From: Escherichia phage vB_EcoM_CRP22
Sequence record: OQ708377.1
Strand: one strand, 5' to 3'
Length of the DNA stretch: 64,000 bases
Shown: positions 8,434 through 15,245 of the stretch, in pieces
Numbering within the stretch: the first letter of the stretch is position 1
How the letters are laid out: each line of letters starts with the position of its first letter
Position numbers and translations under genes: made by a program
Notes under the pieces: model-generated
What the model was told of the DNA's origin: nothing
Database searches by the model: none
Seen by the model: the letters and a program-made list of their open reading frames with translations, nothing else

Positions 8434-9849
8434 ATGAGCGAGTTATTTAAACATGCGCACCTTCATGTAGGTCGAACTGAAAATGGTGCTGTAAACCATA
8501 CTTCATCAATGTCTGCTCTGGTAGACTTCTACAAAGCCGCTGGCTCAAGCCGTAGCAATGTAGAAATCTTACCAGACCTGTTCTACAAAGCTTTGCGTGA
8601 GGATGTTGATGTTGCAGTTCGTATTTTACTGCATATGCGAGATGTACGAGAAGGTATGGGTGAGCGTAAAGCTTTCCGAACTGTTTTGCTTCAAACGATT
8701 GAAGATAAGGTTTTAGAACCTACACAGGTTCTTCGCATTATGGATAAGATTGCAGAACTTGGTCGTTTTGATGACTTCAAAATCTTCGTAGGTACTCGTT
8801 TCGAGACAGATGCCTTCAAACATTTAGAAGCAGCATTACTAGACCCTGCAACAGCAGGTTTAGCGGCTAAGTGGTTACCACGAGTAAAACCACGCCACAA
8901 ACAGTTTGTAAAACGTTTCTGTAAGTTTGCAAACTTAAGCGAGAAGGAGTATCGCACACTGTTATCTGCACTGTCTGATACGGTTGAGCAAAAAATCTCT
9001 GCTAATGAGTTTGGTAAGATTGACTACAGCAAGATTCCTTCACTCGCTGCTGCACGTTACCAAAAACTCTTTAACCGTAAAGATGGGGAACGTTACAAAG
9101 CTTACATCGAGTCCCTCTCAAAAGGTGAGGCTAAGATTAACGCTGGTGCTGTTTACCCATATGATGTGATTAAATCTATTAAGTATGGTAATGCAGATGT
9201 TGCTAACGAGCAGTGGAAAGCACTACCAAACTGGATGGCAGAAGGTGAAAACATCTTGTGTATGACTGATGTTTCAAGCTCAATGTCTTGGGTGAATCTT
9301 GGCTCAATTACTGCCCTTGATATTGGTGTATCACTTGCCTTGTATGTAGCAGAACGCAATACAGGTTGCTTTAAAGATGAGTTAATGGTCTATTCAACAA
9401 ACCCTCATTTCATTGAACTGAGTGGTGATTTACGAAACCGTCATCGTCAGGTGATGCGTCATGTTGAATATGGTTCAACTAACTTACAAGCAGCCTTTGA
9501 CCGCATTCTTGAGACAGGTAAGAGAAACAACTTGACTCAGAAAGATATGCCAAGTAAGCTTATCATCTTCTCCGATATGGAGTTCAATCAGGTTGATGGA
9601 GCTAACGGTCGTACAAACTTTGAAGCAATTCAGAGCAAGTACAAAAAAGCTGGATATGAGATGCCACAACTGGTATTCTGGTACTTAGCAAACCGTAATG
9701 GCACTTGCGAAGTGTCTGTTAAGGATAATGGTGTAGCAATGGTATCAGGGTTCTCTCCAGCCACTTTAAAAGCTCTGCTTGGTGGTGAGAAGTTTGACCC
9801 AATCAGCGTAATGCTCAAAGCAGTAATGATTGACCGTTACATCTGGTAA
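8434..9849 (+). CDS. von Willebrand factor A (vWA) domain protein; possible Ro60/TROVE-like protein
   Basis: 471 aa; MIDAS-type DxSxS motif (CMTDVSSSMSW) after a ~270-aa N-terminal region; Ro60 assignment is inference from context only. Confidence 0.6.
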   Translation: MSELFKHAHLHVGRTENGAVNHTSSMSALVDFYKAAGSSRSNVEILPDLFYKALREDVDVAVRILLHMRDVREGMGERKAFRTVLLQTIEDKVLEPTQVLRIMDKIAELGRFDDFKIFVGTRFETDAFKHLEAALLDPATAGLAAKWLPRVKPRHKQFVKRFCKFANLSEKEYRTLLSALSDTVEQKISANEFGKIDYSKIPSLAAARYQKLFNRKDGERYKAYIESLSKGEAKINAGAVYPYDVIKSIKYGNADVANEQWKALPNWMAEGENILCMTDVSSSMSWVNLGSITALDIGVSLALYVAERNTGCFKDELMVYSTNPHFIELSGDLRNRHRQVMRHVEYGSTNLQAAFDRILETGKRNNLTQKDMPSKLIIFSDMEFNQVDGANGRTNFEAIQSKYKKAGYEMPQLVFWYLANRNGTCEVSVKDNGVAMVSGFSPATLKALLGGEKFDPISVMLKAVMIDRYIW

Positions 9850-10014: not shown

Positions 10015-10091
10015 CTCTGTTTAGCTCAGCTTGGTAGAGCGTTCCGTTTGGGGCGGTAAGGCCGGAGGTTCAAGTCCTCCAACAGAGACCA
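10015..10091 (+). tRNA. tRNA-Pro (anticodon TGG)
   Basis: 7-bp acceptor ctctgtt/aacagag, D-arm GCTCAGCTTGGTAGAGC, T-arm ggagg-ttcaagt-cctcc, CCA encoded. Confidence 0.75.
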
Positions 10092-10098
10092 AATTAAT

Positions 10099-10176
10099 GT
10101 TCCAGTAGACAAAATGGTATAGTCACCACTCTTTCAAAGTGGATATTTGAGGGTTCAAATCCCTTCTGGAACGCCA
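10099..10176 (+). tRNA. tRNA-Glu (anticodon TTC)
   Basis: Acceptor gttccag/ctggaac, anticodon stem ccact/agtgg with loop ctTTCaa, T-loop ttcaaat, CCA. Confidence 0.75.
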
Positions 10177-10267
10177 GTTTTGACAGAAGACCAATTACAG
10201 CAAGTTTAATCTTATTCATCTGACACGAAATCGGACAAAGAAGAGATTTGGTCTGGTCATTAAGAAT

Positions 10268-10344
10268 TGCGGGTATAGAGAAAGGGCGTCTCACATGTCT
10301 CATTAGCATGGTATCGGCAGGTTCGACTCCTGCACCCGCCTCCA
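10268..10344 (+). tRNA. tRNA-Met (anticodon CAT)
   Basis: Acceptor tgcgggt/acccgcc, anticodon loop ctCATta, T-arm gcagg-ttcgact-cctgc, CCA. Confidence 0.65.
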
Positions 10345-10421
10345 ATTTTGCAGAAGACCGTATTCAGCAACAAACTACTTTTTGCGGATAAAAGAAAAAA
10401 CACGGTCTGGCAATGTATTAA

Positions 10422-10497
10422 GGTTAGGAAGCACATAAGGTATGTGCGGTCGCCTGTTAAGCGAATGGCACAGGGTTCGAATCCCTGACTAACCGCA
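10422..10497 (+). tRNA. tRNA-Asn (anticodon GTT)
   Basis: Anticodon loop ctGTTaa, T-arm caggg-ttcgaat-ccctg; acceptor has one mismatch. Confidence 0.6.
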
Positions 10498-10506
10498 AAA
10501 TTAAAT

Positions 10507-10594
10507 GTGTCGTTATCCCGTAGATGGTAGCGGTGGGGACTGTAAATCCCTTGTCATTGAGACTCGGTAGGTTCGACTCCTACACGGCACACCA
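10507..10594 (+). tRNA. tRNA-Tyr (anticodon GTA), long variable arm
   Basis: Acceptor gtgtcgt/acggcac, anticodon stem gggga/tccct with loop ctGTAaa, long extra arm, T-arm gtagg-ttcgact-cctac, CCA. Confidence 0.7.
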
Positions 10595-10616
10595 ACACTT
10601 AGCGAGATACTTAGTT

Positions 10617-11045
10617 ATGAGAGATGAAGTATACAAATCACAACTTGGTATGAGTTTAGGAACTGCACAAAACAGACTAGTAAAAGATTTGCTATTCGAT
10701 TTTATATGTAAAACAAATCAAAATAGATGTTTTCAGTGCGGAAAAGAAATGACTAGGGATGATTTCTCCATCGAGCATAAGGTTCCGTGGAGACATAGTG
10801 AAAACGCAAAAGAGCTTTTCTTTTCACTGGATAATATCTCTTATAGTCATCTTAAATGTAATATGAAAGCAGCAAGACCAGCACAGATAAGTGAAAGAAA
10901 ACATAAAACAGTTGAACACGGAACTGCGTATAGCTATTACAAAGGCTGTAGATGCGAGGAGTGTAGGTTGGCTAAGAATGCTGCTAGCAGGAAGAACTAT
11001 AGCCCAGAAAGGCGTAGGAAGAAGTATTTAAGAAATGGCACATAG
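10617..11045 (+). CDS. HNH endonuclease (free-standing, inside tRNA array)
   Basis: 143 aa from internal ATG; CFQCGKEM...EHKVPW...HLKCN zinc-binding HNH-like motifs; the track ORF start at 10524 overlaps tRNA-Tyr and is rejected. Confidence 0.7.
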   Translation: MRDEVYKSQLGMSLGTAQNRLVKDLLFDFICKTNQNRCFQCGKEMTRDDFSIEHKVPWRHSENAKELFFSLDNISYSHLKCNMKAARPAQISERKHKTVEHGTAYSYYKGCRCEECRLAKNAASRKNYSPERRRKKYLRNGT

Positions 11046-11049
11046 TTTT

Positions 11050-11125
11050 GGGGTATTAGTTTAGACGGTTAAAATACGGGATTGTCTCTCCTGAGCCGCG
11101 AGTTCGATTCTCGCATACCTCGCCA
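11050..11125 (+). tRNA. tRNA-Asp (anticodon GTC)
   Basis: Acceptor ggggtat/atacctc, anticodon stem cggga/tcctg with loop ttGTCtc, T-arm gcgag-ttcgatt-ctcgc, CCA. Confidence 0.7.
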
Positions 11126-11273
11126 ATTTTGAGAGGGCTATTTAGCCCCTCCCTTAAAGAGTTATTACGAGTATTCTTTAAAGGAGCAGAAGACCAAATT
11201 CAGCAAGTTACTTAAAATTTCAAGCCAATTTAATTTTGAAAAATTTAAAACTTGGTCTGGCTTAACAAATTTA

Positions 11274-11404
11274 CAGAAGACCGTTTACAGCAAAACTTAA
11301 ACAATCTATTTCTCGGTAAAGAAAAGGCGAAGGTTCGATTCCTTCACTCGGCAGATGTCGAGTTGGTGTAATGGTAGCACTTAAGATGATAAACAACGGT
11401 CTGG
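11274..11404 (+). ncRNA. Candidate structured ncRNA: circularly permuted tRNA-like module enclosed by an 8-bp stem (possible Y-RNA/YrlA-like element)
   Basis: Linear order is stem strand agaccgtt, T-arm gaagg-ttcgatt-ccttc, acceptor 3' strand actcggc, 4-nt loop, acceptor 5' strand gtcgagt, D-arm gtgt-aatggta-gcac, stem strand aacggtct; the acceptor halves pair over 7 bp. Confidence 0.35.
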
Positions 11405-11405
11405 T

Positions 11406-11551
11406 AATTATCTTTGCAGTAGCTTATGTGGCTAATTATGTCGTCCCATGAGTGCCGATGAATTTCCTTAGCATGATTCTAGATTAGCTTAATAGGGAAT
11501 GACTCTACAGACCCTTTAGCAAGGTCTGCGTAGGTTACTGCAAAGATAATT
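11406..11551 (+). ncRNA. Candidate structured RNA domain closed by a 16-bp stem
   Basis: aattatctttgcagta (11406-11421) is the perfect reverse complement of tactgcaaagataatt (11535-11550), enclosing ~112 nt with an internal cagacc...ggtctg hairpin. Confidence 0.3.
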
Positions 11552-11555
11552 TAAT

Positions 11556-11631
11556 GGAAGTGTAGCAGAATGGTGATGCGGCAGACTTTTAATCTGACAG
11601 GCGATGGGTTCGAATCCATCCACTTCTACCA
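11556..11631 (+). tRNA. tRNA-Lys (anticodon TTT)
   Basis: Acceptor ggaagtg/cacttct, anticodon loop ctTTTaa, T-loop ttcgaat, CCA. Confidence 0.6.
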
Positions 11632-11635
11632 ATAT

Positions 11636-11712
11636 GGTTCAGTCGCAGATAAGGTAATGCAGGGGTCTCATAAGCCCTATGAATGTGGGTTCGATTCCCA
11701 TCTGAACCTCCA
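11636..11712 (+). tRNA. tRNA with anticodon CAT (Met, initiator-like, or Ile2)
   Basis: Acceptor ggttcag/ctgaacc, anticodon loop ctCATaa on a stem with three consecutive G-C pairs, T-loop ttcgatt, CCA. Confidence 0.7.
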
Positions 11713-11714
11713 AT

Positions 11715-11790
11715 GCTGTGAAAGCACATATGGATGTGCATTCGGCTGATAACCGAAAGGAAGAAGGTTCGAATCCTTCTCACAGTACCA
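11715..11790 (+). tRNA. tRNA-Ile (anticodon GAT)
   Basis: Acceptor gctgtga/tcacagt, anticodon stem ttcgg/ccgaa with loop ctGATaa, T-arm gaagg-ttcgaat-ccttc, CCA. Confidence 0.7.
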
Positions 11791-11805
11791 ATTTCAATAA
11801 AGTTG

Positions 11806-11834
11806 TTGACATTGAGATGTGACCACTTTATAGT
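11806..11834 (+). promoter_or_regulatory. sigma70-like promoter inside the tRNA array
   Basis: TTGACA - 17 nt - TATAGT, preceded by A-rich tract aaagttg. Confidence 0.5.
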
Positions 11835-12126
11835 AACTAAAATACTTCATAATATGTATAATTCAAACACCAATACATGAGTATTAGACGTAATGCAATG
11901 TGGGGAAATTTGTTGTACATATTCTGAATAGTTTTCGTTGCGTAGCGTCTATTTTGCAAATTTAAAATAAATGCAAACGACAATGTTTTTCTGGCAGTAG
12001 CTTGATAGGCTAAACACCAGTGAGGTCTTCCAATCCCTCATCAAAGAATTTGGCGTACTCGCCCACGGTATGATTAATAAGGTGGGCATCTTTAAGGGTT
12101 TTTAAGAGAGTCTTTAAAGATAATTA

Positions 12127-12208
12127 CGGGGCGTATCTCAGCTGTCTTCTAAACAGCCGTTAACCGAGTAAGTGGAGTATGCGGGTTCGAGTCCTGCCGC
12201 CTCGACCA
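12127..12208 (+). tRNA. Atypical tRNA-like gene, possibly Arg (anticodon TCT); D-arm not resolvable
   Basis: Acceptor cggggcg/cgcctcg, T-arm gcggg-ttcgagt-cctgc, CCA; clean stem gctgt/acagc with loop ctTCTaa but no canonical D-arm by eye. Confidence 0.4.
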
Positions 12209-12222
12209 ATTTTGGAGAAATC

Positions 12223-12570
12223 ATGAAAACTTGTATTAGGTGCAAACTTAGCAAGGATGAAAATGATTTCTACATGAAAGATGGTAGAAGAACTCATTCA
12301 TACTGTAAAAAGTGTGTTAATGAGCAAACCATAGAAAGACAAAGAGCACTTAAACTCTCAGCTATTGAGTACAAAGGTGGTGTTTGTCAGGATTGTGGTA
12401 AAAGGTATCATCCAGCAGTGTATGACTTCCATCATTTGAATCCTTCAGAGAAAGATTTTAACATTGCTCATAGAAGAAGTCTTAAGTTCTCTCAGGAGCT
12501 TAAGAACGAACTTGACAAATGTGTTTTGCTATGTTCAAATTGCCATAGGGTAAGACATGCAAAGTATTAG
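12223..12570 (+). CDS. HNH endonuclease (free-standing, inside tRNA array)
   Basis: 115 aa from internal ATG (MKTCIRCK...); CxxC pairs and FHHLNP...LLCSNCHRVRH HNH motif; the track start at 12172 overlaps the preceding tRNA-like gene. Confidence 0.7.
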   Translation: MKTCIRCKLSKDENDFYMKDGRRTHSYCKKCVNEQTIERQRALKLSAIEYKGGVCQDCGKRYHPAVYDFHHLNPSEKDFNIAHRRSLKFSQELKNELDKCVLLCSNCHRVRHAKY

Positions 12571-12707
12571 TTAGCAGATTGCTTAGACGACCTTATCGGG
12601 TCTCCGTGTAAGGAGGTGGTCTGTATCTCATGTTTTCCAGAACATGTAAATAATCTGAGAAGGGGCTTTACAGTGTTGAGATAATACGGTAAGCTTCGAA
12701 TTATAAT

Positions 12708-12790
12708 ATGGGACGATGTTAAGACTCTAAGGCATGAGCAACGGCTTCCAACACCGTTTCAAAGGGGTTCAACTCCTCCGTCCCATGCCA
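12708..12790 (+). tRNA. Atypical tRNA-like gene with an apparent 9-nt anticodon loop
   Basis: Perfect acceptor atgggac/gtcccat, T-loop ttcaact, CCA; best anticodon helix aacgg/ccgtt encloses cttccaaca (9 nt); D-region longer than canonical. Confidence 0.4.
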
Positions 12791-12803
12791 AAGTCTTATT
12801 AGG

Positions 12804-12893
12804 GGTAGGTAGCGGCTAATGGTAGCCAAACTGTCTTGAAAACAGTTGCCACTGTAGAGATACGGTGAGGGTTCGACTCCTTTACTTACCGCC
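12804..12893 (+). tRNA. tRNA-Ser (anticodon TGA), long variable arm
   Basis: Acceptor ggtaggt/acttacc, anticodon stem actgt/acagt with loop ctTGAaa, long variable arm, T-loop ttcgact. Confidence 0.7.
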
Positions 12894-13148
12894 TAATAAG
12901 ATTTAAAGCCAAGCTTCATTCGGATGTTGCTTTGGTATCCCTCGTGTATTGTCGTACACACTGATAAAGCACCTGGTAGGTGTCACGGAGAAGAGATAAT
13001 ATCAAGCTCTCCAAAGGTTCTAGTCACCGGATTAAACAAGACTATGCAAAGACCAATTTAGGTCTTTTTAGAGGGCTTCTAAGGTTATTACAGCTTGTTG
13101 TGGAACCTTGTTGCTTAGGTTCTTAGAAGTTCTCTAAAAAGATTTAAT

Positions 13149-13225
13149 GCACCTATAGCCCAATTGGTAGAGGCAGCAGACTTAGAATCTGTTCAGTGTG
13201 AGTTCGAATCTCTCTAGGTGTACCA
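13149..13225 (+). tRNA. tRNA with anticodon TAG (Leu-type), short variable arm
   Basis: Acceptor gcaccta/taggtgt, anticodon stem gcaga/tctgt with loop ctTAGaa, T-loop ttcgaat, A73, CCA. Confidence 0.6.
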
Positions 13226-13232
13226 AATTAAT

Positions 13233-13308
13233 GCAGGTGTAGCAAAATGGTTATGCGGCTGACTCTTAATCAGTAAGACGATGGGTTCAATTCCCTCCAC
13301 CTGTACCA
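13233..13308 (+). tRNA. tRNA-Lys (anticodon CTT)
   Basis: Acceptor gcaggtg/cacctgt, anticodon stem gctga/tcagt with loop ctCTTaa, T-loop ttcaatt (weak T-stem), CCA. Confidence 0.55.
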
Positions 13309-13314
13309 AACATT

Positions 13315-13390
13315 GGGGTCATAGTTTATATGGTTAAAATTCGAGTTTTGCAAACTTGGGAACTGAGTTCAATTCTCAGTGACTCCACCA
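13315..13390 (+). tRNA. tRNA-Ala (anticodon TGC)
   Basis: Acceptor ggggtca/tgactcc, anticodon stem cgagt/acttg with loop ttTGCaa, T-arm ctgag-ttcaatt-ctcag, CCA. Confidence 0.7.
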
Positions 13391-13396
13391 ATTAGT

Positions 13397-13471
13397 GCAT
13401 CCATAGTTTAAACGGGAAAATTACAGTCTTCCAAACTGAGGTTGAGGGTTCGATTCCCTCTGGATGCTCCA
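13397..13471 (+). tRNA. tRNA-Gly (anticodon TCC)
   Basis: Acceptor gcatcca/tggatgc, anticodon loop ctTCCaa, T-arm gaggg-ttcgatt-ccctc, CCA. Confidence 0.7.
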
Positions 13472-13478
13472 AATTAAT

Positions 13479-13555
13479 GCTGCTTTCGTATAATTGGCTA
13501 TTACACATCCCTTGTAAGGATGGAAATGCAGGTTCGAGTCCTGTGAGCAGCACCA
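13479..13555 (+). tRNA. tRNA-Thr (anticodon TGT)
   Basis: Acceptor gctgctt/gagcagc, anticodon stem catcc/ggatg with loop ctTGTaa, T-arm gcagg-ttcgagt-cctgt, CCA. Confidence 0.7.
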
Positions 13556-13651
13556 ATTCAGAGGTCAAGTGAAAGACCGCTTTGAGTCAACTGAAGACCG
13601 TAACAAATCCCACGGAGTTGAGTTAGCGGCACAACTTCAGACCTCTTTCAT

Positions 13652-13726
13652 ACTCGCTTAGTTTATATGGTAAAACATCAACCTTACAAGATGAAGAAAA
13701 AGGTTCAAGTCCTTTAGTGAGTACCA
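13652..13726 (+). tRNA. tRNA-Val (anticodon TAC)
   Basis: Acceptor actcgct/agtgagt, D-stem gttt/aaac, anticodon loop ctTACaa, T-arm aaagg-ttcaagt-ccttt, CCA. Confidence 0.65.
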
Positions 13727-13727
13727 T

Positions 13728-13805
13728 GTTCCAGTATCCCAATTGGCAGAGGATGCAAGCTCAAACCTTGTATTAGTGACGGTTCGAATCCGTCTTGGAA
13801 CACCA
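13728..13805 (+). tRNA. tRNA with anticodon CAA (Leu-type), short variable arm
   Basis: Acceptor gttccag/ttggaac, anticodon stem gcaag/cttgt with loop ctCAAac, T-arm gacgg-ttcgaat-ccgtc, A73, CCA. Confidence 0.6.
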
Positions 13806-13810
13806 ATTTT

Positions 13811-13885
13811 GCAGGATTAGTTCAAATGGATAGAGCAACAGTCTACGAAGCTGTTAATAGGGGTTCGAATCCCTTATCCTGCGCC
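13811..13885 (+). tRNA. tRNA-Arg (anticodon ACG)
   Basis: Perfect acceptor gcaggat/atcctgc, D-arm TAGTTCAAATGGATAGAGC, anticodon loop ctACGaa, T-loop ttcgaat, CCA. Confidence 0.75.
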
Positions 13886-13892
13886 AATTAAA

Positions 13893-13969
13893 TAGGGGAT
13901 TAGTTTACAAGGTTAAAACCTCGGTCTTTGAAATCGAAGAAGTTGGTTCAATTCCAACATCCCCCGCCA
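13893..13969 (+). tRNA. tRNA-Gln (anticodon TTG)
   Basis: Acceptor aggggat/atccccc (1-72 mismatch), D-stem gttt/aaac, anticodon stem tcggt/atcga with loop ctTTGaa, T-arm gttgg-ttcaatt-ccaac, CCA. Confidence 0.65.
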
Positions 13970-13971
13970 AT

Positions 13972-14050
13972 GCTCCATTACTCCAATTGGCAGAGAGGCC
14001 AGACTTAAAATCTGTGTTATGTATCGGTTCGAATCCGATATGGAGTACCA
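13972..14050 (+). tRNA. tRNA with anticodon TAA (Leu-type)
   Basis: Acceptor gctccat/atggagt, anticodon loop ctTAAaa, T-arm atcgg-ttcgaat-ccgat, A73, CCA; D-arm parse ambiguous. Confidence 0.55.
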
Positions 14051-14055
14051 AATTT

Positions 14056-14131
14056 AGCGGTATAGCATAACTGGCAATGCAGCAGTCTCTGAAGCTGTCT
14101 TATTAAGGTTCAAATCCTTATGCCGCTGCCA
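14056..14131 (+). tRNA. tRNA-Gln (anticodon CTG)
   Basis: Acceptor agcggta/tgccgct, D-stem gcat/atgc, anticodon stem gcagt/gctgt with loop ctCTGaa, T-loop ttcaaat, CCA. Confidence 0.65.
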
Positions 14132-14162
14132 CTTCTAAGGGTTCTTACGAGAGTCCTTAAAT

Positions 14163-14238
14163 GTGGCCTTATCATAAAAGGTAATGACCCATGCTGTGAA
14201 CATGGTCTATACGGGTTCAAATCCCGTAGGTCACCCCA
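14163..14238 (+). tRNA. tRNA-His (anticodon GTG)
   Basis: Acceptor gtggcct/aggtcac, anticodon stem ccatg/catgg with loop ctGTGaa, T-arm acggg-ttcaaat-cccgt, CCA. Confidence 0.7.
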
Positions 14239-14243
14239 ATTTA

Positions 14244-14320
14244 TAGTCCAAGTAGCTTATATGGTTAAAGCGCGTGTCTGAAAAACATGAGAAGAGGGTT
14301 CAAATCCCACTGGACTACCA
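14244..14320 (+). tRNA. tRNA-Phe (anticodon GAA)
   Basis: Acceptor tagtcca/tggacta, D-stem gctt/aagc, anticodon stem cgtgt/acatg with loop ctGAAaa, T-loop ttcaaat. Confidence 0.6.
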
Positions 14321-14337
14321 ATTTCAAAGGTGCTTAA

Positions 14338-15071
14338 TGAAAGAGATGACAGAACAAGGTAAGGAGATTTTTAATCTCTTAAAAACCGGTAGAGGGTTTT
14401 CTAATCCCCTTATTACTGGTGCAGCAGTTCTCGGTGGAACCGTAGCTACCTCTACATCACTTGTAAACTCTATTAGCTCTGTAACAGACCCTACAATAAA
14501 GGATAAACTTGTTGCTGCTGGACTTACAACAGTTCTGCTTAACAGCTTTACAACGAGTCTGACAAGCACTACATCAACCACTAAAACACCGACAGATTAC
14601 GGTCAAAAGTCCATTGATGAGTTTTCATCACGTATGCAGGTAGCAAAAGGATACTCTAATGTTATGGGTGCAGCAGGAGAGCAAGTTGGTTGTACACCAT
14701 TTAGTGGTATTATGGGTGTTGCTACAGAGTATGGTCAAAAAGCTATTGACACAATTAACAGTGCACTAGACGGTGTTAATGATGTATTAAGTGACTTACA
14801 AGATGCTATTGATAAAGGTCTTGATACTATTTCTGATTTAGCTAACCAAGCTGTTAGTAAGATTAATGAAGGTATTTCGAAGATTACAGCTTATGCAGAT
14901 GAAGTTGTGCAGATGATTGAAGAAGAAGCTGCCCTTATTGCAGAGTACCTTAAAACGAATATCAATGGGTTCTTAGCAGGTATCTTACCAGACTGGTTTG
15001 ACGATGCTTGTAAAACTGGTGTGATTGATACTATTGCAACACCAGAAATGAAGAACGCATTACAGAAATAA
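14338..15071 (+). CDS. hypothetical Ser/Thr-rich protein encoded inside the tRNA array
   Basis: 244 aa from internal ATG (MKEMTEQGKEIF...); the track start at 14274 overlaps tRNA-Phe; long S/T-rich region followed by a helical C-terminus. Confidence 0.45.
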
Positions 15072-15072
15072 T

Positions 15073-15165
15073 GGAAGATTAACCCTAAAAGGTAAGGGAG
15101 CAGTTTGCTAAACTGCCAGTAGCTGAGAAATCGGTGTACCAGTTCAAGTCTGGTATCTTCCTCCA
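15073..15165 (+). tRNA. tRNA-Ser (anticodon GCT), long variable arm
   Basis: Perfect acceptor ggaagat/atcttcc, anticodon stem gcagt/actgc with loop ttGCTaa, long variable arm, T-arm accag-ttcaagt-ctggt, CCA. Confidence 0.75.
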
Positions 15166-15169
15166 ATTT

Positions 15170-15245
15170 GAATCCGTGACAGAAATGGCTATGTGCCTGT
15201 CTGCAAAACAGGTTTATAAGGGTTCGAGTCCCTTCGGATTCTCCA
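15170..15245 (+). tRNA. tRNA-Cys (anticodon GCA)
   Basis: Perfect acceptor gaatccg/cggattc, anticodon stem cctgt/acagg with loop ctGCAaa, T-arm aaggg-ttcgagt-ccctt, CCA. Confidence 0.75.

Follow-up and report, generated by a model that had tools for sequence, protein, structure and literature searches.

A long variable arm is given in textbooks as the rule for bacterial tRNALeu, and bacterial TyrRS depends on the long variable arm of its own tRNA. The long arm is likewise treated as the rule for bacterial tRNALeu by Fan et al. (2019, PMC6614811). SerRS requires a long arm together with G73 (PMC9976931). The identity set of E. coli LeuRS comprises A73, U8:A14, A15:U48, G18G19, and A20a (Giege and Eriani, 2023, PMC9976931). 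Leucylation in E. coli is reported to need neither the long arm nor the anticodon (Fan et al., 2019, PMC6614811, introduction; Giege and Eriani, 2023, PMC9976931); the minimal tRNALeu of Larkin et al. (2002) is cited here as its result is given by Giege and Eriani (2023, PMC9976931). EcLeuRS contacts residues 47f-47i, and the leucine-specific domain prefers a large variable loop (Fan et al., 2019, PMC6614811). EcLeuRS is described as charging type II tRNALeu only. A type I tRNALeu(CAA) of Streptomyces coelicolor was leucylated in vitro by its own LeuRS and was not charged at all by EcLeuRS (Fan et al., 2019, PMC6614811); no other type I tRNALeu from bacteria has been studied biochemically.

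The short form of tRNALeu in phages is barely described in the literature. A search for short-arm phage tRNALeu or 'type I tRNALeu' returned just the Streptomyces study and a one-sentence remark, made in passing, on the short-loop tRNALeu of mycobacteriophages and mycobacterial tRNA arrays (Behra et al., 2019, PMC6582537). The papers on the Felix O1 genome and on tRNAscan-SE 2.0 do not mention short-arm tRNALeu, nor do a survey of tRNAs across viruses and a review of non-canonical tRNAs. A search for charging experiments with tRNAs encoded by phages gave no relevant result, and the literature found holds neither charging nor expression data for the three tRNAs considered here. In this study, we analyzed a 64,000-nt stretch of DNA from Escherichia phage vB_EcoM_CRP22 (OQ708377.1; hereafter, the window), which carries three Leu tRNA genes with short variable regions. 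The reading that we favor, with a probability of about 0.8, is that they encode functional phage Leu tRNAs on a type I scaffold and are members of a widespread short-loop tRNALeu family.

The window derives from a Felixounavirus and is ~97-99% identical to many GenBank records. Its tRNA cluster (Table 1) is interrupted by HNH-endonuclease-like open reading frames, a DUF7217 open reading frame, and tRNA-like remnants, and the same cluster layout is annotated in phage wV8. The presence of the Leu genes is ordinary for a Felix O1-like phage, and they are already annotated as tRNA-Leu in Felixounavirus GenBank records. Homologs of the UAG species were found at 96-99% identity in 91 phage records, nearly all of which annotate it as tRNA-Leu. 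In the Felix O1 genome paper, tRNAscan-SE (v1) called this species Leu by its anticodon, with a Cove score of 52.24.

Table 1. Position and calls of the tRNA cluster, its three Leu genes, and the long-arm tRNA genes used as internal contrast.
Feature	Coordinates in the window	Strand	Call or content
tRNA cluster with the three Leu genes	10015..15245	+	25 tRNA genes, one strand
tRNA-Tyr(GUA), 88 nt, 15-nt variable arm (internal contrast)	10507..10594	+	ARAGORN
tRNA-Ser(UGA), 90 nt, 20-nt variable arm (internal contrast)	12804..12893	+	ARAGORN
tRNA-Leu(UAG), type I	13149..13225	+	ARAGORN; Rfam tRNA 58.8 bits
tRNA-Leu(CAA), type I	13728..13805	+	ARAGORN; Rfam tRNA 44.0 bits
tRNA-Leu(UAA), type I	13972..14050	+	ARAGORN; Rfam tRNA 47.5 bits
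tRNA-Ser(GCU), 93 nt, 21-nt variable arm (internal contrast)	15073..15165	+	ARAGORN

The preliminary description, made from the letters of the window, had placed tRNAs with TAG, CAA, and TAA anticodons at the positions of the three Leu genes. ARAGORN returned identical coordinates, and the Rfam general tRNA covariance model agreed. With the encoded CCA, the UAG, CAA, and UAA species are 77, 78, and 79 nt long, respectively (ARAGORN). Their Rfam scores exceed the gathering score of 29 by 15-30 bits (E-values, 5e-13 to 6e-9). The 7-nt anticodon loops (CUUAGAA, CUCAAAC, and CUUAAAA in UAG, CAA, and UAA, respectively) were put at the same positions by ARAGORN and the Rfam model; this check of the anticodon positions did not refute the preliminary finding. 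The variable regions are TCAGT (5 nt), ATTAGT (6 nt), and GTTATGT (7 nt) in the same order. The type I fold of the preliminary description was thus borne out, and its range of ~5-8 nt for the variable loops narrows to 5-7 nt. A73, which it had also listed, and an encoded CCA are present in 3/3, and all invariant tRNA positions are intact. The long variable stem-loop, a type II trait, is missing from all three, whereas leuQPV, leuZ, leuX, leuW, and leuU of the host E. coli K-12 have variable arms of 13-15 nt.

The layout of the UAG species is GCACCTA TA GCC-CAATTGGTAGA-GGC A GCAGA CTTAGAA TCTGT TCAGT GTGAG TTCGAAT CTCTC TAGGTGT A CCA. Its first pair is a G1.U72 wobble, position 37 is A37, and the T stem contains a single mismatch (U50.U64). 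The CAA species has the D arm TCC-CAATTGGCAGA-GGA and G1-C72. The UAA species has the D arm CTC-CAATTGGCAGA-GAG, G1.U72, a C27.U43 mismatch, and A36A37A38. Minimum free energy (MFE) folding did not separate the three Leu tRNAs from shuffled sequence (z of -0.07, -1.78, and -1.59). For the UAA species, a non-cloverleaf MFE fold was favored by 4.8 kcal/mol, and the cloverleaf was the MFE structure in just 13/25 of the phage tRNAs, the UAA species being among the other 12. Thermodynamic folding was dropped as a reality test, since it is uninformative for A/T-rich unmodified tRNAs; the evidence for the structure is accordingly drawn from the covariance model and compensatory changes among relatives. 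For 24 type I Leu tRNAs of 12 phages, pairing holds in 168/168 acceptor-stem cells, with 3-6 pair types per position, and the D, anticodon, and T stems also show many compensatory changes.

These data bear on whether the three genes are decaying or non-functional relics. The cluster does hold such material, namely a degenerate tRNA-like piece at 12127-12205 and remnants at 11321-11345, 11416-11435, and 11994-12013. In addition, two of the Leu tRNAs carry the stem mismatches given above, and a few tRNAs of the block are labelled tRNA-OTHER in some GenBank records. Against decay, the three genes are kept at 96-99% identity across Felixounavirus and are conserved across Ounavirinae, including Erwinia and Pectobacterium phages, whose counterparts have fully compensated stems. 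The intact invariant positions, A73, and encoded CCA, together with the margin over the Rfam threshold, also speak for maintained genes, and we consider decay very improbable. A host or prophage copy of the UAG species was considered and rejected, because no match to it was found in 5,426 complete E. coli genomes.

The nucleotides that E. coli LeuRS reads are present in the three tRNAs. At the sequence level, U8 (T8), A14, A15, and a last variable nucleotide T would allow U8:A14 and A15:U48 in 3/3. G18G19 and A20a lie in an 11-nt D loop on a 3-bp D stem in 3/3, and the Rfam alignment marks 13:22 as unpaired. The T loop is TTCGAAT in 3/3, with which G18:U55, G19:C56, and U54:A58 can form. The Leu D arms, NNN-CAATTGG(T/C)AGA-NNN, match the host tRNALeu D arm, GNG-(G/A)AAT(T/C)GGTAGA-CNC, in length and sequence, and a D arm of this type occurs in 0/22 of the other tRNAs of the window. 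The variable regions end in GT in the phage Leu tRNAs as in host tRNALeu. The phage UAG, CAA, and UAA species share with host leuW, leuX, and leuZ, respectively, the anticodon, and with all of them A73, U8, the 3-bp D stem, the 11-nt D loop ending in AAU(U/C)GGUAGA, the standard T loop, and GU as the last two variable nucleotides; the G1.U72 wobble is also found in host leuZ. The two sets differ at position 9 (G9 in host tRNALeu versus A9 in the phage) and in the D stem (G/A13 with G12-C23 in the host versus C13 with C12-G23 in the phage).

The D-arm pattern TAGCCCAAYYGGYAGAGGC, which places no constraint on the anticodon, was run on bacterial genomes and viral contigs. The matches were 117 bacterial and 115 viral tRNAs, all 74-79 nt long. 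Leu anticodons were found in 117/117 of the bacterial and 114/115 of the viral matches (231/232), with all six Leu anticodons represented. In this family, A73 is present in 229/229 and a terminal variable-region T in 228/229. In fetched phage loci, the Leu-type D-arm motif was present in 20/28 Leu tRNAs versus 3/169 others. The family D arm is (U8 A9) NCC-CAAYYGGYAGA-GGN; the UAG species matches the search pattern exactly, and the CAA and UAA species differ in stem pairs only. The three Leu tRNAs of the window also conform to the family variable loop of ~5 nt ending in U48 and to the length of 74-79 nt.

The preliminary description had raised the option that the identity of the three tRNAs is not Leu. 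Under that alternative, they would be charged by another synthetase, with recoding of UUR/CUN codons, or would have a non-translational role. The missing long arm is in its favor, as is the failure of EcLeuRS on a heterologous type I tRNALeu (PMC6614811). The same study provides one class member, from S. coelicolor, that is leucylated in vitro (PMC6614811). No identity set for another synthetase was found: G3:U70 for Ala is absent, with 3-70 pairs of A-T, T-A, and T-A, and the long arm and G73 needed by SerRS are both missing. E. coli ValRS reads C36, whereas residue 36 in these tRNAs is G or A. Across the 232 phage and bacterial tRNAs selected by D arm, the anticodons on the scaffold are almost exclusively those for Leu, all six of which occur. 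Moreover, recoding ~8% of all codons is implausible in a phage relying on host-like proteins. A non-Leu identity is therefore extremely improbable, since every readable E. coli LeuRS identity element is present and 231/232 of the selected tRNAs have Leu anticodons. The three tRNAs are very probably genuine Leu acceptors, and from their identity nucleotides we infer that host LeuRS charges them with leucine. The EcLeuRS failure may not transfer to the phage tRNAs, because position 48 is C48 in the S. coelicolor tRNA (variable loop ACAGC) versus U48 in the phage tRNAs; it is still a real caution.

The scaffold is widely distributed. BLAST matches were found in 346 phage records. The window Leu tRNAs are 72-83% identical to their type I counterparts from phages of Cronobacter, Mycobacterium, Myxococcus, and Streptomyces, versus 57-62% identical to E. 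coli tRNALeu. Phages with the short-arm scaffold infect hosts from at least six phyla, and near-identical bodies were seen in phages of Proteobacteria, Actinomycetota, Bacillota, Cyanobacteria, and Myxococcota and in crAss-like phages. In a sample picked regardless of Leu, 25/46 phage Leu tRNAs had the short form, and Ser and Tyr tRNAs were almost never short. Short and long Leu tRNAs can occur together in one phage, as in Enterococcus EFDG1 and Streptomyces Genie2. Many Actinomycetota carry the short form in the chromosome as an ordinary solitary gene (99/120 loci). The premise that bacterial tRNA-Leu normally carries a long arm consequently holds for the host and fails as a general rule, since phages and Actinomycetota chromosomes often have the short form. 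Short-arm Leu tRNAs are real, ordinary for phages, and under-described.

Anticodons appear to vary freely inside the Leu box on this scaffold. In the Val-Leu-Arg gene-order slot, the window has CAA and an Erwinia phage has AAG. A switch of anticodon within this slot was considered and rejected, because body similarity suggests pairings across different slots: the window UAG gene would be the nearest relative of the Erwinia AAG gene, and the Erwinia CAA gene, sited elsewhere, would be the counterpart of the window CAA gene. The claim is hence limited to free variation within the Leu box.

Among described tRNAs, S. coelicolor tRNALeu(CAA) resembles the phage family in its 5-nt loop (ACAGC versus xCAGU) and coexists with type II isoacceptors. 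It differs in that its own LeuRS ignores A73 and has a special leucine-specific-domain linker (PMC6614811), whereas the phage tRNAs must use an E. coli-type LeuRS; E. coli LeuRS itself does not charge the S. coelicolor tRNA. The short-loop tRNALeu species in mycobacteriophages and in mycobacterial tRNA gene arrays have the same scaffold as the window Leu tRNAs. Roots515 tRNALeu(CAG) is 80% identical to the window UAG species and has the same D arm, the variable loop GCAGT, the T arm GTGAG/CTCAC, and G1.U72. These tRNAs are unlike the window Leu tRNAs in host phylum, anticodon set (CAG/GAG/CAA), and the lack of an encoded CCA. Animal mitochondrial tRNALeu(UUR) is also type I, with A73 and A14 as identity elements (PMC9976931), but it is structurally floppy and reduced and is served by its own mitochondrial LeuRS, which touches the anticodon stem, and nothing points to shared ancestry with the phage family. 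Phage T5 tRNALeu(UAG) is likewise coliphage-encoded, lies in an HNH-rich tRNA cluster, and has A37 after the anticodon; it differs in being type II, 85 nt long, with a 13-nt variable arm. For this reason, T5 was rejected as an experimentally studied short-arm precedent, and the short arm is not universal among coliphage tRNALeu. T4 tRNALeu is presumably to be grouped with T5 tRNALeu(UAG) in this coliphage comparison.

In the favored reading, the variable stem-loop alone would have been lost, a part reported as dispensable for E. coli leucylation, and host LeuRS would recognize the retained A73, U8:A14, A15:U48, G18G19, A20a, 3-bp D stem with 11-nt D loop, and T loop. The Ser and Tyr tRNAs of the cluster keep the long arm, in this reading because SerRS and TyrRS depend on it, which would explain why only Leu was trimmed. 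Once charged, the UAA and CAA species would read UUA/UUG, and the UAG species would read CUN. The phage has a G+C content of 39%, and its Leu codons are TTA (26.6%), CTT (28.3%), and CTA (11.4%) versus CTG (14.9%). Host tRNA genes for UUA/UUG and CUN codons are single-copy only. In the Felix O1 genome paper, Leu[TTA] is among the codons aided by phage tRNAs. The suggestion of unusual isoacceptors for A/T-rich Leu codons was therefore upheld, as the anticodons serve UUA/UUG and CUN, which are favored by phage codon usage. Weighing against the favored reading, besides the EcLeuRS failure, are the U50.U64 and C27.U43 mismatches, the unremarkable thermodynamic folding, and A37 in the UAG species versus G37 in host leuW, so that modification and frame maintenance may differ between the two.

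By analogy, the short arm, together with loss of G37 in the UAG species, might evade host defences that cut or modify tRNAs by reading the long arm. Translation could then continue after destruction of the host tRNALeu pool. This proposal is compatible with Leu charging and differs in the selective reason, which would be immunity evasion and not tolerated loss. A precedent in E. coli is the cutting of tRNATyr in its variable loop by Septu and retron-Eco7, to which T5 tRNATyr is resistant owing to its distinctive variable loop (PMC13096335). The MenT3 toxin requires the long variable loop of tRNASer (PMC11541572). Other points in line with evasion are the enrichment of the short form in phages (25/46 Leu tRNAs), the UAG species having no homolog in the 5,426 E. 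coli genomes, the coexistence of long and short Leu tRNAs in some phages, and A37 in both window and T5 Leu(UAG) versus G37 in host leuW. However, the documented targets, Tyr and Ser, retain their arms in the window phage, and the literature search found no defence system reported against bacterial tRNALeu or its variable arm; a bacterial Schlafen preprint and the Septu/SegB paper (PMC13096335) contain no Leu data. Evasion therefore remains an analogy. The chromosomal occurrence in Actinomycetota also means that no phage-defence rationale is needed for the short form. We regard evasion as quite unlikely.

A broader reading is, in our view, speculative and unlikely. Short-arm tRNALeu could be a phage-favored, horizontally mobile 'universal' Leu adaptor, which through loss of the variable stem-loop would be chargeable by LeuRS from widely differing bacteria and invisible to host enzymes that recognize the long arm. 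It would explain why about half of the sampled phage Leu tRNAs are short and why near-identical bodies occur across phyla. If true, E. coli LeuRS would charge a natural type I tRNALeu, contrary to the literature.

The three genes encode natural Leu tRNAs with a short arm that, if functional, must work in E. coli or Salmonella cells, and they offer a ready test of how much of the arm LeuRS needs. Suppressor and genetic-code work might also use them as compact scaffolds of Leu identity. The phage-wide pattern, in which about half of the sampled Leu tRNAs are short, Ser and Tyr almost never are, and Actinomycetota carry the short form in their chromosomes, merits a census. For annotation there is a hazard, since such Leu genes could be scored too low or mislabelled by isotype models in which a long arm is expected.

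Between positions 10015 and 15245 of the window, 25 tRNA genes were called on the + strand with ARAGORN, among them the three tRNA-Leu genes (UAG, CAA, and UAA) listed in the table. Their cloverleaves were drawn with a 7-bp acceptor stem, 5-bp anticodon and T stems, and an 11-nt D loop on a 3-bp D stem; all three have A73 and an encoded CCA. The Rfam general tRNA covariance model (gathering score, 29 bits) covered each gene end to end and flagged 13:22 as unpaired, in agreement with the 3-bp D stem. The preliminary description had located the three genes and their short variable arms, a view to be abandoned if a covariance model moved the anticodon. The coordinates and short arms were borne out by ARAGORN, segment parsing (5, 6, and 7 nt), and the Rfam model, which placed all three anticodon loops exactly as ARAGORN did; hence, the observation was confirmed and the finding stands. 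Minimum-free-energy folding gave weak, uninformative z-scores, and a non-cloverleaf fold was favored for the UAA species, as for approximately half of the phage's tRNAs.

Features of the tRNA cluster and its flank in the window
Feature	Position	Strand	Evidence and remarks
471-aa ORF	8434-9849	+	DUF2828 (E 3e-29) and DUF7788 (E 3e-43)
HNH endonuclease-like ORFs (two) in tRNA cluster	10524-11045, 12172-12570	+	Weak (E 0.002 and 0.003), below Pfam cut-off
tRNA fragments, T-arm-like and 5'-half-like, in cluster spacers	11321-11345, 11416-11435, 11994-12013		Direct-repeat families shared with real tRNAs
tRNA-like element	12127-12205	+	Rfam tRNA model 31.2 bits (gathering score 29); without ARAGORN call
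tRNA-Leu(tag)	13149-13225	+	ARAGORN; Rfam tRNA model 58.8 bits; variable region TCAGT, 5 nt
tRNA-Leu(caa)	13728-13805	+	ARAGORN; Rfam tRNA model 44.0 bits; variable region ATTAGT, 6 nt
tRNA-Leu(taa)	13972-14050	+	ARAGORN; Rfam tRNA model 47.5 bits; variable region GTTATGT, 7 nt
tRNA-Phe	14245-14320 (ARAGORN), 14246-14316 (Rfam)		ARAGORN register off by one base
DUF7217 ORF	14274-15071	+	E 5e-88; flanked by tRNA-Phe and tRNA-Ser; counterparts annotated as holin or membrane protein

The three genes themselves are known and annotated. Many Felix O1-like myophages (genus Felixounavirus) of E. coli, Salmonella, and Shigella share 97-99% identity with the region, and all three genes already bear the tRNA-Leu label in most annotated relatives' records. 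The 2010 Felix O1 genome paper tabulated them from tRNAscan-SE and discussed codon usage, with no comment on the variable arm.

E. coli K-12 leuQPV, leuZ, leuX, leuW, and leuU were parsed in the same way as the phage tRNAs. The host variable arms are 13-15 nt, and the host D arm has 3 bp and the 11-nt loop (G/A)AAU(U/C)GGUAGA. The phage loop, CAAUUGG(U/C)AGA, is nearly the same on identical geometry; by segment parsing, this D arm is absent from the other 22 tRNAs of the window. E. coli LeuRS (EcLeuRS) reads A73, the A15:U48 Levitt pair, G18G19 and A20a of the D loop, and the D/T-loop tertiary pairs (Giege and Eriani, 2023; PMC9976931). Recognition does not extend to the anticodon or to the long variable arm (PMC9976931; see also PMC6614811), and truncated tRNALeu without the anticodon arm and the variable arm is still charged (PMC9976931). 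Every identity element readable from sequence was found in the three phage tRNAs. They have T8, A14, A15, and A73, GG with an A past position 20, the T loop TTCGAAT, and, like the host tRNAs, GT at the end of the variable region. The long variable arm, which is characteristic of the family but unused for identity, is the only family feature they lack. No competing identity set was found in them (no G3:U70, no long arm with G73), and the other synthetases that read the anticodon and accept A73 would, by the rules in PMC9976931, fail to recognize UAG, CAA, or UAA. We infer that the window Leu tRNAs would work like ordinary tRNALeu.

Coupling between tRNA body and anticodon was assessed by scanning two public collections, bacterial genomes and viral contigs, with the D-arm pattern TAGCCCAAYYGGYAGAGGC, on which no anticodon constraint was placed. 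At least 120 loci were obtained per collection, and the matches listed were run through ARAGORN. Among these, Leu anticodons were carried by 117/117 bacterial tRNAs (taa 72, caa 23, cag 9, tag 9, gag 4) and by 114/115 viral tRNAs (tag 40, taa 37, caa 27, cag 5, gag 3, aag 2). All D-arm-pattern tRNAs among the matches listed were 74-79 nt long, with A73 in 229/229 and a variable-region terminal T in 228/229. In the fetched annotated phage loci, the Leu-type D-arm motif occurred in 20/28 Leu tRNAs versus 3/169 others. As judged from sequence, the scaffold with the TAGCCCAAYYGGYAGAGGC-type D arm is a leucine scaffold, because it is found with each of the six Leu anticodons and with essentially no others. 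Leucylation has been demonstrated for one such tRNA, the tRNALeu(CAA) of S. coelicolor, whose variable loop is ACAGC (PMC6614811).

The short form is widespread. BLAST with the window UAG species matched 346 phage records, including 101 Mycobacterium and 56 Streptomyces phages, and also phages of Gordonia, Enterococcus, Pseudomonas, Cronobacter/Pantoea, and Myxococcus, one cyanophage, and one crAss-like phage; no homolog was found in 5,426 complete E. coli genomes. With a 13-tRNA query, all Actinomycetota or Enterococcus phage matches listed fell on the Leu(UAG) gene. In 24 short Leu tRNAs parsed from 12 representative phages, A73 was invariant (24/24), the variable region ended in T in 23/24 and measured 5 nt (n=20), 6 nt (n=2), or 7 nt (n=2), and the acceptor stem was paired in 168/168 cells with 3-6 pair types per position. 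U8-A9 was present in 19/24, whereas all type II (long-arm) tRNAs have U8-G9. Identity of the window Leu tRNAs is 72-83% to short Leu tRNAs from unrelated phages with other Leu anticodons, but just 57-62% to the host tRNALeu of the same anticodon. Phage T5 tRNALeu(UAG) is type II; hence, the short form is not found in all coliphages.

In bacterial genomes, the D-arm motif was a solitary chromosomal gene in 99/120 loci listed, chiefly of Actinomycetota. Among the matches listed from these loci (L018-L137), short-arm chromosomal tRNALeu, mostly UAA, was seen in Nocardia, Gordonia, Amycolatopsis, Corynebacterium, Arthrobacter, and others, and genes sharing this D arm were seen in Planctomycetota and Myxococcus. 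This conflicts with the published claim that bacterial tRNALeu are almost all type II. Of the three window Leu tRNAs, two (13149/13225 and 13972/14050) have a G1.U72 wobble at the end of the acceptor stem, as do 19/24 short phage Leu tRNAs (fetched phage loci L003 and L010-L017, and the window); among the D-arm-pattern matches listed, the wobble was enriched on the phage side, at 47/112 viral versus 20/117 chromosomal tRNAs.

The identity elements suggest that the three phage tRNAs would be leucylated by an E. coli-type LeuRS. EcLeuRS has been described as type II-only, with a leucine-specific domain that favors a large variable loop and a C-terminal domain that contacts variable-arm nucleotides 47f-47i, and it does not charge Streptomyces type I (short-arm) tRNALeu(CAA) at all (Fan et al., 2019; PMC6614811). 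That failure precludes certainty on the charging of the phage tRNAs. However, the Streptomyces tRNA has C48 where the E. coli identity set calls for U48, and its leucylation system does not use A73; thus, the negative result may not apply to the phage tRNAs. Short-arm tRNALeu is known from mitochondria (PMC9976931) and S. coelicolor (PMC6614811), and is mentioned in a single line for mycobacterial tRNA arrays (PMC6582537). In the literature searched, we found no description of the short arm as a general phage tRNALeu feature and no assay of such a tRNA with an E. coli-type LeuRS. Given the minimal-substrate work on tRNALeu, these tRNAs are unlikely to astonish a tRNA specialist; a simple charging experiment is nonetheless worthwhile in view of the family's breadth and the clash with the description of EcLeuRS as a type II-only enzyme.

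A bias-reduced sample of 428 tRNAs was taken from 120 viral-contig loci with a T-arm pattern requiring G73, which excludes tRNALeu itself. In this sample, Leu tRNAs were short in 25 and long in 21 cases (13 vs 17 unique sequences), and long arms were present in 41/44 Ser and 14/14 Tyr tRNAs. SerRS is known to depend on the long variable arm, as does bacterial TyrRS; it fits this dependence that Ser and Tyr tRNAs have selectively kept their long arms. The simplest reading of the short Leu arm is a tolerated loss. An anti-defense adaptation of phages is conceivable by analogy, since Septu and retron-Eco7 cleave tRNATyr in its variable loop (PMC13096335) and MenT3 requires the long loop of tRNASer (PMC11541572), but it appears improbable, and no defense system targeting tRNALeu was found reported in the literature searched.

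Across the window, 70 long ORFs (17,626 codons, 39.0% G+C) had Leu codon shares of TTA 26.6%, TTG 12.8%, CTT 28.3%, CTC 6.1%, CTA 11.4%, and CTG 14.9%. CTG makes up approximately half of the Leu codons in E. coli, whose tRNALeu genes comprise four CAG and single UAG, CAA, UAA, and GAG genes, as partly confirmed by the fetched K-12 genes. The tRNALeu species encoded by the phage are precisely UAG, CAA, and UAA; for Leu[TTA], the 2010 Felix O1 genome paper came to the same conclusion. Most likely, the Leu tRNAs would be transcribed within the tRNA cluster, charged by host LeuRS via A73 and the D-loop/elbow elements, and used to decode UUR and CUN codons.

Further features were noted in and beside the cluster. 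Position 37, where G37 is the site of m1G37, is A37 in the phage tRNA-Leu(UAG) (loop CUUAGAA) versus G37 in host leuW (UUUAGGU); A37 also occurs in T5 tRNALeu(UAG) and in 5/7 short UAG tRNAs of other phages. Such phage-host differences in the anticodon loop may bear on modification or anticodon nucleases. In the tRNA-like element, the acceptor stem and T arm are good, A73 and CCA are present, and the anticodon stem-loop bears CUUCUAA (UCU, Arg AGA), with just 4 nt in place of the D arm and a 20-nt variable region. Its counterpart is probably the pseudo 'tRNA-OTHER' of wV8, directly upstream of an HNH gene; the 2010 Felix O1 genome paper noted the absence of an Arg(AGA) tRNA that would have been expected. 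The spacer fragments group with real tRNAs in direct-repeat families, which suggests that they are decayed tRNA genes; comparable 'tRNA-like stable RNAs' are annotated in the T5 tRNA cluster. The DUF2828/DUF7788 ORF, whose wV8 counterpart is named 'RNA-binding protein', lies directly upstream of the cluster, and its placement beside a tRNA cluster that includes tRNA-like RNAs may be meaningful. In Myxococcus phage Mx1 and crAss-like phage cr111_1, short-arm Leu tRNAs likewise have HNH genes as neighbors; the placement is consistent with tRNA gene shuffling driven by homing endonucleases. In the ARAGORN register, tRNA-Phe has the T loop GTTCAAA and a 3-nt variable region; one-base shifts of this kind in several tRNAs of other loci were corrected by hand.
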